Assembly (NCBI GenBank): GCA_963728565.1
Contig: CAVSLC010000023.1
Location: 224,001-288,000 of the forward strand
Direction: 5' to 3'
Length of the DNA stretch: 64,000 bases
DNA from: an uncultured delta proteobacterium
GTDB taxonomy: Bacteria > Desulfobacterota > Binatia > UBA9968
The notes under the pieces were generated by a model that was not told the DNA's origin, did not search any database, and worked only from the letters and a program-made list of their open reading frames with translations. A program made the position numbers and the translations under genes. Positions 57,881-61,397 of the stretch are shown piece by piece. Every line of letters starts with the position of its first letter. The first letter of the stretch is position 1.

Positions 57881-58058
57881 AAAGTTCGCCTCAAAATCAT
57901 CAGAGCCAATCATACAGAGTCTAATGATGATTACGTGATCCGCGCCGCGAGAGGAAGGATTGAATCGTTCACTTCTTAATCTTGACAAACGGACGGAATC
58001 TTTTTTGTGTTCCTGACAATCTCGCCGTGGCCATCATTTATTAAGCAAGCGTTTCCAC

Positions 58059-58073
58059 TGGCATATCTGTTGC
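58059..58073 (+). promoter_or_regulatory. Sigma-54 -24/-12 promoter
   Basis: TGGCATATCTGTTGC upstream of MITE copy 3 and the YeeE operon. Confidence 0.75.
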
Positions 58074-58091
58074 TCCAAGGCCTTAGTTAAT

Positions 58092-58330
58092 GCCGGATTC
58101 CGCAGTCGAACTAAAGATGCCGCAAGCGAGGTGGAATCCTGGAGCAGCGAAGGCGTCCGACTGTGAAGTTTCAAAGTGTTTTTGCGCTCTCGCAGGTCGT
58201 TGCTATGAGGCTTAAACATCCCGCTTGAAGCACCGCTGAGCGATCTCTGCTCAGAGGTAGAAACCCATCGACTTCGCTGCGGAAGGATTGTGCCTCGCGC
58301 TTTCTGTCAATCGCAACTGCGGAATCCGGG
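58092..58330. mobile_element. MITE copy 3
   Basis: GCCGGATTCCGCAGT ... ACTGCGGAATCCGGG ends; flanks TTAAT / TTGAT (one mismatch). Confidence 0.82.
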
Positions 58331-58353
58331 TTGATTCGAAAGGAGGAGAACAA

Positions 58354-58818
58354 ATGAAAAGGACAGGTTGGATCATAATGATCACAGTATTCGCGGTGAT
58401 CTTCAGTGTGGCGAATTCTTTCGCGCAGCAAGGACCCGGAACCATGTGGCGCGGCAGCGGCGGATGGGGGCAAGGAAGCCAGTACAACAAGATGTACGAT
58501 CCGAAGGCGGTGGAAACGATTAGCGGGGAAGTAACCAACGTGGATCGTATTACGCCGGCCAAAGGGATGAGCGGTGGACTTCACATGAGTGTGAAGACCG
58601 ACAAGGAGACGATCTCCGTTCATCTGGGTCCGAGCTGGTATCTTGAAAACCAGGACGTCAAGATCGAAGCGAAAGACAAAGTCGAAGTGAAGGGCGCGAG
58701 GACCACTTTTGCAGGCAAACCGGCGATCATCGCGGCGGAAGTGAAGAAGGGCGATGAAGTTTTGAAATTGCGTGACGACAACGGCTTTCCTGTGTGGAGC
58801 GGTTGGCGCAGGCATTAG
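58354..58818 (+). CDS. Secreted/periplasmic OB-fold-like protein
   Basis: AGGAGG RBS, signal peptide, Gly/Met-rich linker, YDP..VETI.GEV, VHLGPSWYL and LRDDNG.PVW. Confidence 0.75.
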   Translation: MKRTGWIIMITVFAVIFSVANSFAQQGPGTMWRGSGGWGQGSQYNKMYDPKAVETISGEVTNVDRITPAKGMSGGLHMSVKTDKETISVHLGPSWYLENQDVKIEAKDKVEVKGARTTFAGKPAIIAAEVKKGDEVLKLRDDNGFPVWSGWRRH

Positions 58819-58917
58819 TTTCGACGCAACCCTTGATTCGCACGGTTTTGGTCGGCGGCTGTTTGGAACGGAAAAGCTCTCCCACCGCCGGTTCGCTGAC
58901 ACTGGGAGGAAACAGCT

Positions 58918-59439
58918 ATGGATTGGCTACGTAGAGAAGAGTGGCCCTGGTGGCAGGCGGGTTTATTACTCGGCCTGCTAAACATGGCGGCATTTTTCAC
59001 GGCGGACTATTACCTGTCGGTTTCGACGACTTTCTCGCGCGCCGCGGCAATGGTGGTTGGACTGGTCGCACCGGAGCATGTGGCGGCAAACGCATACTGG
59101 CAGAAGGTTAAGCCGATAGTCGATTGGCAATTCATGCTTGTTCTGGGAATTCCACTCGGCGCCTATCTGGCCGCGCGACTGAGTCAAAAACCCGTCGAGT
59201 TCACCGGATCGCTTCCCGATATGTGGGTCAGCCGATTCGGTACGAGCAATGCGCAGCGTTGGGTTGTCGGTATATTGGGCGGTATTTTCGTCGGTTTCGG
59301 TGCGCGCCTGGCCGATGGCTGAACCAGCGGCCACGCTCTCAGTGGAGGGCTTCAAATGGCCGTGAGCAGTTGGATCTTTCTGATCGCGATGATGATCTCG
59401 GGCACGATCATGGCGCGGCTAATTTTCCGGAGGGTGTAG
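58918..59439 (+). CDS. YeeE/YedE-family half transporter A, candidate selenoprotein (173 aa, U135)
   Basis: Reading through TGA 59320-59322 gives FGARLADG-U-TSGHALSGGLQMAVSSWIFLIAMMISGTIMARLIFRRV*, restoring the GCTSGH motif and the last TM helix. Confidence 0.88.
59329..59361 (+). promoter_or_regulatory. SECIS-like hairpin A
   Basis: GGCCA..GCUCUC-[AGUG]-GAGGGC..UGGCC; loop 18 nt after the UGA. Confidence 0.65.
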
Positions 59440-59441
59440 CT

Positions 59442-60029
59442 ATGGGTCCATTAGAAATTACCGGTCCAGCGCGTCTTGCGCTCGGACTCGCAACCGGAAT
59501 TCTCTTCGGTTTCATTTTACAAAAGGCACAGGTCACCCAGTATCAAAAGATCGTGTCTTTCTTTCGTTGGAGCGACCTGACTGTCCAGAAAGTCATGTTC
59601 GCGGCGATACTCGTCGGTATGGTCGGGGTGTATGCGCTGCATGATCTTGGTTTGGTCAATCTTCACATCAAGCCGACCTTGCTTGGCGCCAATATCCTTG
59701 GCGGCCTGATTTTCGGCATCGGCATGTTGCTCTTGGGCTTTTGACCCGGCACCTGTGCTGCGGCCTTCGGCGAAGGCCGTTTAGATGGTTTGTTTCGCGG
59801 CGTTCTGGGCATTTTGATCGGCGCGGGTATTTACTCGGAAATCTATCCGTTGATTCAGGATAATCTTCTTAAGCTCGGCGATTTCGGTAAATTGACCATT
59901 CCAACCGTCCTAGGGGTCAATCCATGGTTCGTGATCATACCGTTTACGATCATCGTCAGCGGAATTCTCCTGTGGATGGACCAGATTGATAAGCGAAAGA
60001 CGAGTAACGCAAGAGAGTTAACACGATAA
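59442..60029 (+). CDS. YeeE/YedE-family half transporter B, candidate selenoprotein (195 aa, U101)
   Basis: GGAGG RBS; FGFILQK..; GGLIFGIGMLLLGF-TGA(59742)-PGTCAAAFGEGRLD continues in frame into ORF 59790..60029, restoring the G(Y/F)CPGT motif. Confidence 0.88.
59760..59780 (+). promoter_or_regulatory. SECIS-like hairpin B
   Basis: GCGGCCUUC-[GGC]-GAAGGCCGU, 9-bp stem, loop 24 nt after the UGA. Confidence 0.7.
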
Positions 60030-60361
60030 CGTGATCTACAGGCGGGCGTAAATAATCATGAGGGGGAAAAGATGCAACAGAAAAAGGTACTCATAACCAT
60101 GTTGGCGGGCGCGCTACTTGTTTCAGCCAATCCGCTCTCTAGCGGCTGAGCAAGATCTGTAATAAATTTGATTTTTTGGAACAGTTTAGCATCAAGAGTT
60201 CTAACTTATGGGTAAATGGTTCTGTTTTTGAACAGGAAGGATAATGTTGTTGTGAATTATAGAGTGGAAGATAGATGGTTGGTCAGAGAATAGACAGATT
60301 CGCTGCAGAGTCTCGCTTTTACAGTTGGTCGATGGCATACGTGGATATCGGCAAAGGATCT

Positions 60362-60480
60362 GTGAAAACTCTCGTTCTGCTACGACACGGCGAAAGTACC
60401 TGGAACAAAGAAAACCGCTTCACAGGCTGGGTCGATGTGGGCCTAACAGATGGAGGAATCCGAAGTCGCCCGTGCCACGC
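60362..60480 (+). pseudogene. gpmA: N-terminal remnant of 2,3-BPG-dependent phosphoglycerate mutase
   Basis: [29 protein letters not shown], then similarity is lost. Confidence 0.8.
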
Positions 60481-60509
60481 GCCTTGCGGTGACCATAGAT
60501 GGAGGCGGC

Positions 60510-60632
60510 ATGAAAAATAAAAGAATCGAAACGTTCGACGATTGGAAAGATGTCTTTCACATGTGGCAAAAAGATATCAACTACGACACCGCGCTCTTTG
60601 ATTCCGTTCTGCAGGGCTATGACTTCACCGCG
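60510..60632 (+). pseudogene. N-terminal remnant, possibly of a BoxB-like benzoyl-CoA epoxidase subunit
   Basis: GGAGG RBS; [25 protein letters not shown]; family assignment is from recollection only. Confidence 0.4.
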
Positions 60633-61135
60633 ACTTGTAGAGCAACGCTCTGCCTTTGTCCCAGCCGCCGTGAATGAGCATGCCAAAGTCGCCCAGCTCC
60701 TACGGCACTTCATGGGCCGCGGCGGGATCCAGGTGCTGATGCCGACCCGCACGTCGATGAGAAAAGCTCCGGCCATAGCCAGACCGCCGATGAAATTGTG
60801 CACGCCGTCGGCGATCAAAATTAAATACGTCAAGGGCCGGTGCTCGCTCGGCGGCGGTGGCAGTGATGCCAGTGGAGAAACTGTTCGAGCGCCAGAAACA
60901 GGGTGAAACCGAGCAGCGTCCACAGATAAACGGAAAGTCGGTTGCCGCTTTTCTCGATGGCGGCGGGTATCATGTGCAGCAACGCGCCGCCGAGCAGCGT
61001 GCCGGCGGCCAGGGCGACCAGCGGCAACAGTCATTTCTTGAGCGTTGCTTCGCTGAAAAAAAGCGTGAGGCTGCCGACAAGCGCGATCGCGCTCATCAGA
61101 ATCCCGCTGGAAACAATCCAAAGAAATGTAGTCAC
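60633..61135 (-). pseudogene. ZIP-family metal transporter pseudogene
   Basis: AAGTLLGGALLHMIP, LEQFLHWHHCH, ADGVHNFIGG and HEVP*ELGDF; internal TGA and TAG, frameshifts, 3' truncated. Confidence 0.85.
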
Positions 61136-61397
61136 GGTGTTGTTTCCAGGCGCAACCACTGCCAAGCGCCGAGCTGCGCGTCCGCGCAACGAGCACAGCT
61201 CGAACGCAATCCTTCTCGAGTTTCCTGCCTGGTCAGCGCAACGCCGGTCGAGATCGTACCGCCAGTCAAGCGCGCAGCCCACGCGGCGCCGACGGTCTCT
61301 CATTCGACGCGGCTTCCACGCCAAGGCAAAGATCGGGTCCAGCTACGGCGCCAGCTCCAAGAGCAGACCCTTGGGCGGCTTTTCTTCGCCGCTGCGG

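Follow-up and report, generated by a model that had tools for sequence, protein, structure and literature searches.

The closest described relatives of the system reported here are YeeE/YedE (Sulf_transp) transporters that are divided between two half-size proteins. Among these are the short two-gene relatives PmpA and PmpB, where PmpB represents the N-terminal half of YeeE with the C91 cysteine, PmpA represents the C-terminal half with the C293 cysteine, and the two were proposed by the authors to form a heterodimer (PMC11582611). Also described is YedE1E2 of Cupriavidus and Sinorhizobium, which consists of two half-size proteins that import zero-valent sulfur, with both subunits needed and with a change of the single conserved Cys to Ser in either subunit abolishing activity (PMC10812762). 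Single-chain YeeE/TsuA (from Spirochaeta thermophila, PDB 6LEO, and Escherichia coli YeeE), which is paired with YeeD/TsuB, has a fold that is homologous by sequence. In YeeE the cysteines C22, C91 and C293 are found ~7 Å apart, lining the protein where it is thinnest, with C91 and C293 being indispensable and C22 dispensable (PMC7449682). Here we describe two adjacent genes of this superfamily, gene A and gene B, that reside in a 64,000-nucleotide (nt) window (contig CAVSLC010000023.1 of assembly GCA_963728565.1, positions 224,001 to 288,000) from an uncultured delta proteobacterium of the Binatia, and that each contain a single in-frame TGA codon. With a probability of roughly 0.85, we consider this pair to be a two-gene operon for a split YeeE/YedE (Sulf_transp) transporter of the PmpAB/YedE1E2 kind that has selenocysteine (Sec; U in motifs) at both of the essential Cys positions.

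A split YeeE/YedE gene pair with an in-frame TGA in each half

All elements of the gene pair are on the + strand, and coordinates given below are positions in the window. Gene A (58918-59439) reads from an ATG at 58918 to a TAG at 59437-59439 and comprises 173 codons, with inspection revealing a Shine-Dalgarno-like GGGAGG (58904-58909) located 8 nt 5' of the start codon. Its in-frame TGA at 59320-59322 would code for U135 in the context ARLADG-U-TSGHALSGG, giving the motif G-U-T-S-G, and a hairpin resembling a bacterial selenocysteine insertion sequence (SECIS) is present downstream at 59335-59350. Gene B (59442-60029) reads from an ATG at 59442 to a TAA at 60027-60029 and comprises 195 codons, with a second Shine-Dalgarno-like sequence, GGAGGG (59429-59434), contained within the 3' end of gene A. 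The gap between the gene A stop and the gene B start is only 2 nt, a spacing that suggests that translation of these genes is coupled. The gene B TGA at 59742-59744 would code for U101 in the context MLLLGF-U-PGTCAAAFGEG, giving the motif F-U-P-G-T-C in which Cys105 is located four residues past Sec, and its SECIS-like hairpin is found at 59763-59777. Apart from the one in-frame TGA that each contains, both genes are free of further stops and frameshifts. An earlier note on this DNA, which was made from the sequence alone, had given coordinates for both genes, both TGAs and both stops that all proved correct upon re-reading of the sequence, and had proposed that the TGAs replace conserved family cysteines in a pair of selenoprotein subunits.

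When translated with read-through of the TGA, both products are putative membrane proteins that match Pfam PF04143 (Sulf_transp; cut-off 27 bits). Specifically, gene A scores 86.5 bits over profile positions 171-307, which is the C-terminal half of the profile, and gene B scores 69.4 bits over positions 12-157, which is the N-terminal half. These matches span both sides of each TGA and are the sole two Sulf_transp matches in the assembly. A phmmer comparison of the two products with PDB sequences placed U135 of gene A on C293 of S. thermophila YeeE, and placed U101 of gene B on C91 in an ungapped alignment, which agrees with the idea that the TGAs fall at conserved cysteines. The position of YeeE C22 is occupied by Thr32 in the gene B product, and of the three YeeE cysteines this pair retains the positions of C91 and C293 only. 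By these alignments, the two predicted Sec residues occupy the two central essential Cys positions of YeeE, C293 and C91.

As with PmpAB/YedE1E2 of Cupriavidus, Sinorhizobium and Serratia, the present locus has two adjacent genes that each represent half of YeeE, with gene A being PmpA-like (C-terminal half) and gene B being PmpB-like (N-terminal half). The split two-gene forms that the earlier note had mentioned have already been described under these names. Each half of PmpAB/YedE1E2 has one conserved Cys at the C293 or C91 position, whereas Sec is predicted at both of these positions in the present pair. A further difference is the extra Cys four residues past Sec in gene B, and, unlike YedE1E2/PmpAB, there is no persulfide dioxygenase, rhodanese or ArsR-type gene among the neighbours scanned. 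The present pair also differs from YeeE/TsuA, which is one chain rather than two, in having Thr at the C22 position, in scoring 48-56 bits against the TsuA equivalog cut-off of 400, and in that no TusA/YeeD-family gene to match the YeeD/TsuB partner was found in the present 80.55%-complete assembly.

Sec in this family is partly catalogued. A 2026 review lists YeeE/YedE as a selenoprotein family with the motif GUxSG, giving Zhang & Gladyshev 2008 and Peng et al. 2016 as its sources, and a 2022 review has the same entry. The catalogued protein has one Sec and one motif, which gene A (G-U-T-S-G) fits and which gene B (F-U-P-G-T) does not. In the review text searched there is no UPGT-type entry for YeeE/YedE, and neither PmpAB nor a heterodimer is mentioned. 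The YeeE/YedE family is not named in the main text of Zhang & Gladyshev 2008 or in that of Peng 2016. The deep-Sep paper is also without mention of the family, and full-text literature searches, which covered main texts, gave nothing further on Sec in YeeE/YedE/PmpAB. The earlier note had been unsure whether Sec-containing YeeE pairs were already catalogued. This doubt was justified for the gene A motif, which is already listed, while the B-half Sec site (UPGT) and the double-Sec pairs have, provisionally, not been found in print. What appears to be new here, again provisionally, is the presence of Sec in the B half and its presence in both halves at once; membership of a selenoprotein family and the split architecture were known. 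In the literature searched, we found no description of a membrane transporter whose two protomers both contain Sec, which this pair would be.

Evidence for selenocysteine at the two TGA codons

A codon that is TGA in some close relatives and TGC/TGT in others is the classic mark of a genuine Sec site. Among 61 related genomes that were searched with gene A, matches were obtained in 12, and in four of these (the source genome itself and the species-level genomes G001, G010 and G014, at 86-99% identity) gene A contains one internal TGA. Gene B of G001, G010 and G014 likewise has a TGA at the Sec site. Further relatives were collected from GTDB species genomes and from JGI metagenome contigs, each scanned once, giving a close-clade set of 66 loci with at least one of the two sites on the contig. 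The states of sites A and B in this set, respectively, are U/U at 37 loci, U/off-contig at 10, C/U at 5, U/C at 1, C/C at 9 and C/off-contig at 4, with two of the C/off-contig loci actually lying outside of the clade. All four combinations of Cys and Sec are thus present in the close clade. The gene A site is TGA at 48 of the 66 loci and TGC/TGT at 18 (including the two outside loci), and the gene B site is TGA at 42, and TGC at 10, of the 52 close-clade loci where it is visible. On a tree of 42 loci that was built with both sites masked, there are at least four changes at site A and at least three at site B. Close relatives have either TGA or TGC/TGT at precisely these two positions, and sequence comparison shows both UGAs to be genuine, selected Sec codons. 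The proposal that both subunits are selenoproteins is likewise supported by the hairpins, the selection past the TGAs and the sel machinery that are described below.

A more distant set of 120 loci that have both motifs, chosen by similarity to gene B and with three spurious rows dropped, contains predicted Sec in A only at 21 loci, in B only at 47, in neither at 45 and in both at 7. The 21 A-only loci, which come from the phylum sample, have the motif GUPSG in A and Cys in B, and many of the B-only loci come from Chloroflexota/Anaerolineae records. A Cys at +4 of the gene B site is present in 44 of 54 Sec forms versus 16 of 66 Cys forms, a difference that is confounded by lineage. As a separate observation, loci L096-L153, which are mostly from Chloroflexota/Anaerolineae, commonly combine a B half that has Sec ([YF]-U-P-G-T-C) with an A half that has Cys, and they have their own conserved hairpin of the GCCGCC-GGU-GGCGGC type ~17 nt past the UGA. 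The idea that Cys/Cys forms arose because the Sec trait was lost was also considered and rejected, since selA is present in all five genomes tested, a Cys/Cys one included.

The source genome has the components needed to decode UGA as Sec. Specifically, the 4.53 Mb assembly (28 contigs, 80.55% complete, 5.84% contamination) has a tRNA-Sec on contig C25 (74.2 bits) that has the anticodon tca according to ARAGORN, as well as selA (607.5 bits), selB (395.7 bits) and selD (382.3 bits) by profile score. The latter three are all on contig C28 with selD placed directly after selA and selB, and the gene pair is apart from all of these on contig C23. Judged by this gene content the organism is able to decode UGA as Sec, and the search for Sec machinery that the earlier note had called for thus returned every component. 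Note that selD (C28, 38569-39495) codes for a selenoprotein itself, with an in-frame TGA in the context KAAG-U-AAKLGP, the customary G-U-A-A-K site. A genome-wide code change in which TGA is a sense codon was rejected, as TGA is the commonest stop in this genome, terminating 910 of 2168 open frames of at least 300 codons, and as the gene A and gene B orthologs in G010 and G014 use TGA as their own terminal stop.

We also looked at the RNA downstream of each UGA, where the earlier note had reported stem-loops 18 and 24 nt away with an early G in the loop. Folding finds both of them. Hairpin A has a stem at 59335-59340/59345-59350 (GCUCUC/GAGGGC) with the loop AGUG 18 nt past the UGA, and hairpin B has a stem at 59763-59768/59772-59777 (GCCUUC/GAAGGC), extendable to 59760-59780, with the loop GGC 24 nt past the UGA. 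The bSECISearch model has a window of 16-37 nt from the UGA to the loop. Both hairpins have the bacterial SECIS form, with loops at 18 and 24 nt and a G within the first two loop positions. An Rfam scan of positions 58000-61000 at a permissive threshold yielded just a chance snoRNA match (E 0.65), which speaks neither for nor against the hairpins.

Within the clade, presence of the stem goes with the TGA state. Counting distinct sequences, stem A is complete in 35 of 37 TGA forms versus 0 of 14 Cys forms, and stem B in 33 of 33 TGA forms versus 3 of 9 Cys forms. Local folding energies average -10.8 kcal/mol for TGA forms versus -5.0 kcal/mol for Cys forms at site A, and -13.1 versus -6.4 kcal/mol at site B. 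The Cys forms code for the same amino acids via other synonymous codons that disrupt the stem. Across the 37 distinct TGA-form sequences of gene A, 90.1% of the cells in the hairpin are paired, with slid controls being lower, and there is a compensatory change at pair 17-30, which is C-G in 20 sequences and G-C in 17. Approximately half of the TGA-form sequences pair hairpin A better one register over, with a 5-nt loop. Hairpin B is detected by RNAalifold and has all six pairs intact in 33 of 33 TGA-form sequences, with a compensatory change at pair 25-33 (U-A in 27, C-G in 6) and with another pair that is G-C in 25 and G-U in 8.

Conservation past the TGA was measured with Nei-Gojobori ratios of nonsynonymous to synonymous substitution (dN/dS) in ungapped codon windows, comparing the source genes with U/U orthologs and using pairs with dS>0.1. 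The 38 codons past the gene A TGA have a median dN/dS of 0.074 (n=36 pairs) relative to 0.075 upstream, and the 80 codons past the gene B TGA have a median of 0.155 (n=33 pairs) relative to 0.048 upstream. A few upstream gene A values near 1 are misalignment artefacts (L207, L230, L209-L212), and the high downstream value of the G001 locus is caused by a deletion there. The sequence past both TGAs is under purifying selection, which is the outcome that the earlier note had expected of true read-through genes.

The TGAs also recur in independent data. A search of public sequencing runs revealed no run with more than one third of the sampled words, and the independent data consist of contigs of relatives, aligned at ≥85% identity, from two soil DNA runs and two RNA-library runs. 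Both TGA codons are covered by contigs of all four runs, and there are single contigs that bridge them in X15 (59020-59674 and 59659-60001) and in X17 (58903-59474 and 59597-59786). None of the 40 differences listed, out of 143 in the run contigs, falls on either TGA. One difference, 59337 T>C, converts a G-U pair of hairpin A into G-C, as is found in orthologs. The called gene B product of the window is a 124-amino acid fragment that ends with LLLGF at the TGA, and a 64-member cluster of related called proteins ends at this same point. It had been predicted that standard gene callers would break these genes, and they do.

Competing explanations, transport mechanism and substrate

Several results weigh against a split transporter with Sec in both halves. 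The gene A and gene B products are 173 and 195 amino acids long versus the ~130 reported for PmpAB, whose subunits have four transmembrane helices each. Neither the TsuA/YeeE models (NF052577, 47.9/56.5 bits versus a cut-off of 400; NF041049, 29/35.5 versus 645) nor the YedE/FdhT models (34.4/36 bits versus 350 and 30.6 bits versus 200; NF033796, TIGR04112) are reached, and there is no match to PF01206, the TusA/YeeD-family partner, anywhere in the 80.55%-complete assembly. Among the neighbouring open reading frames scanned there are no sulfur or selenium metabolism genes, and the DNA just downstream of gene B (60030-61330) contains broken genes. As to the hairpins, RNAalifold misses hairpin A on the full 37-row gene A alignment because two subgroups use registers that are one base apart, and TGA and Cys forms of gene A cannot be told apart by their plain 50-nt folding energy (p = 0.35). 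Neither hairpin exceeds shuffled sequence when folded alone (z = -1.08 for A, -0.21 for B). Their significance comes from comparison with relatives only, and kinship among the sequences inflates all of the hairpin counts and tests. Among distant homologs the contrast is weak, with a hairpin of -7.5 kcal/mol or lower present at site A in 24 of 28 TGA versus 61 of 92 Cys forms, and at site B in 50 of 54 TGA versus 48 of 66 Cys forms. The RNA-library contigs are from relatives that are ~90-97% identical and could be contaminating DNA, and they are no proof of transcription. Finally, gene B of the nearest genome, G001 (97% identity in gene A), ends early and is missing ~45 codons close to the 3' end, for which a deletion, or a fault in the assembly of this 620-contig draft, may be responsible. 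This shortened gene (L021, 2025-2474) keeps the Sec TGA and the hairpin.

These points need to be set against what other explanations would require. If the pair were a doubly nonsense-mutated pseudogene in which TGC/TGT changed to TGA and the genes are now decaying, then a single base change would suffice at each site, and the broken genes downstream as well as the truncated gene B of G001 would be in keeping with decay. We nevertheless regard this as highly improbable, as 37 of the 66 close-clade loci, drawn from many assemblies, have TGA at the two sites, dN/dS past the TGA is only 0.07 for A and 0.16 for B, the hairpins track the TGA state, and neither gene has another stop or frameshift. 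An assembly or sequencing error at both codons, for which the draft state of the genome (28 contigs) and its contamination leave some room, has a next to negligible chance given that the same TGAs are found in independent genomes, in dozens of metagenome contigs and in the contigs of four other runs. This recurrence also upholds the argument of the earlier note that two independent errors at the same key codon were unlikely. The UGAs could instead be real but not serve, or not mainly serve, as Sec codons, either ending translation to yield short N-terminal products, with read-through acting as a selenium-dependent switch, or taking another residue through near-cognate read-through. Bacterial Sec insertion is often inefficient, so that truncated products are expected beside full-length ones, and one metagenome protein, P0033, has W at the gene B site, though this may be a gene call with TGA=Trp. 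This explanation is quite improbable as well, since a hairpin of bacterial SECIS form accompanies TGA and disappears from Cys forms, all of the Sec machinery exists in a genome where TGA is an ordinary stop, and the site alternates with Cys, the chemical analogue of Sec.

A different kind of alternative accepts the Sec genes and changes their task, with the pair handling selenium (uptake or detoxification of selenite or selenide, feeding SelD) rather than sulfur compounds. YedE-type proteins have been linked to selenium use by comparative genomics and by work in Methanococcus (PMC5322559, PMC11097638, PMC11582611), and the selenium-linked YedE/FdhT family (NF033796, TIGR04112) belongs to the same superfamily and is weakly matched by the present pair. 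These matches are only 30-36 bits relative to cut-offs of 200-350, and that family has been proposed to carry selenium, not to contain it. Moreover, the pair is not located beside sel genes, being on C23 with selA/selB/selD on C28 and tRNA-Sec on C25; Cys/Cys forms occur in genomes that keep selA; and the characterised two-gene relatives import zero-valent sulfur (PMC10812762). A selenium-handling role is unlikely. For the split Sec transporter as we read it, the most likely substrate, by analogy with YedE1E2 and TsuA, would be zero-valent or sulfane sulfur, or thiosulfate. The sulfur/selenium oxyanion substrate that the earlier note had named did not gain support and remains a guess. No result ties the pair specifically to thiosulfate or to selenium, as the scores are far below the TsuA and YedE/FdhT cut-offs and the neighbours scanned include no sulfur or selenium genes.

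How such a transporter might function can be outlined from its relatives. SelB would read each UGA with the aid of the coding-sequence hairpin located 18 nt (gene A) or 24 nt (gene B) downstream. By homology, the A and B products would then pair as a pseudo-symmetric heterodimer with the two Sec residues opposite one another across the narrow middle of the pore. There they may act as selenolate nucleophiles, such that sulfane sulfur or a related chalcogen would cross the membrane by a covalent relay, with Cys105 of the B subunit as a possible resolving partner for a selenosulfide. The published YeeE model has the cysteines guiding thiosulfate via hydrogen bonds only.

Sec is normally recruited where Cys does nucleophilic or redox chemistry, and a selenol is largely ionised at neutral pH. 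Because of this ionisation, Sec fits the role of covalent-relay nucleophile better than that of hydrogen-bond donor. If our reading is true, its repeated recruitment therefore points to a covalent relay, as an ionised selenol cannot be a hydrogen-bond donor. That Sec is found in several lineages at one or the other essential position, or at both, likewise argues for covalent chemistry in the pore. We extend this tentatively, at somewhat less than even odds, to a picture in which a Se/Se pair, or together with Cys105 a Se/Se/S triad, sits across the constriction, the whole YeeE/YedE family operates by covalent chalcogen relay, and the UPGT and double-Sec forms are uncatalogued. Were the covalent relay true, then persulfide or selenosulfide intermediates, and not passive guidance, would be expected across the YeeE/YedE family. 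The main value of this locus is such a mechanistic hint for the family as a whole, the transport mechanism of which becomes directly testable through natural U/C variants. A practical consequence is that the family is under-counted in soil and sediment genomes, because standard gene callers cut these genes in two.

Neighbouring genes and variant loci

Directly upstream of the pair on the + strand is a gene (58351-58818) for a secreted MamS/MamX-domain-like protein of 155 amino acids. This protein has no Pfam hit and only a weak NCBIfam MamS match (26.5 bits versus a cut-off of 200), and its atlas neighbours all carry PF26390. In G001, G014, L169 and L171, as well as in the Cys/Cys locus L178, such a gene also directly precedes the pair. 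The protein is a conserved neighbour that may belong to the system. Other neighbouring genes comprise a MacB-type ABC/HlyD efflux set, a CDF transporter, OsmC, a P-type ATPase and a CBS protein.

The broken genes downstream of gene B include a 25-codon remnant (60073-60150) of a secreted protein whose full-length form is present in G001, and an 81-amino acid phosphoglycerate-mutase-like fragment (60275-60520) that matches the first 31 of the 194 positions of His_Phos_1. They also include pieces of a ZIP transporter in two frames of the minus strand (60423-61196 and 60833-61027).

A few metagenome sequences depart from the common pattern. Three loci (L180, L181 and L215) keep the gene A TGA and hairpin and then diverge completely ~11 codons later (SGGLRLPGRF), which suggests a rearrangement or a chimeric join. 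The P0033 protein, which is 88% identical to gene B, reads LLGF-W-PGTS, with W at the Sec position and S in place of the +4 Cys; this W may reflect gene calling with TGA=Trp rather than a real TGG.

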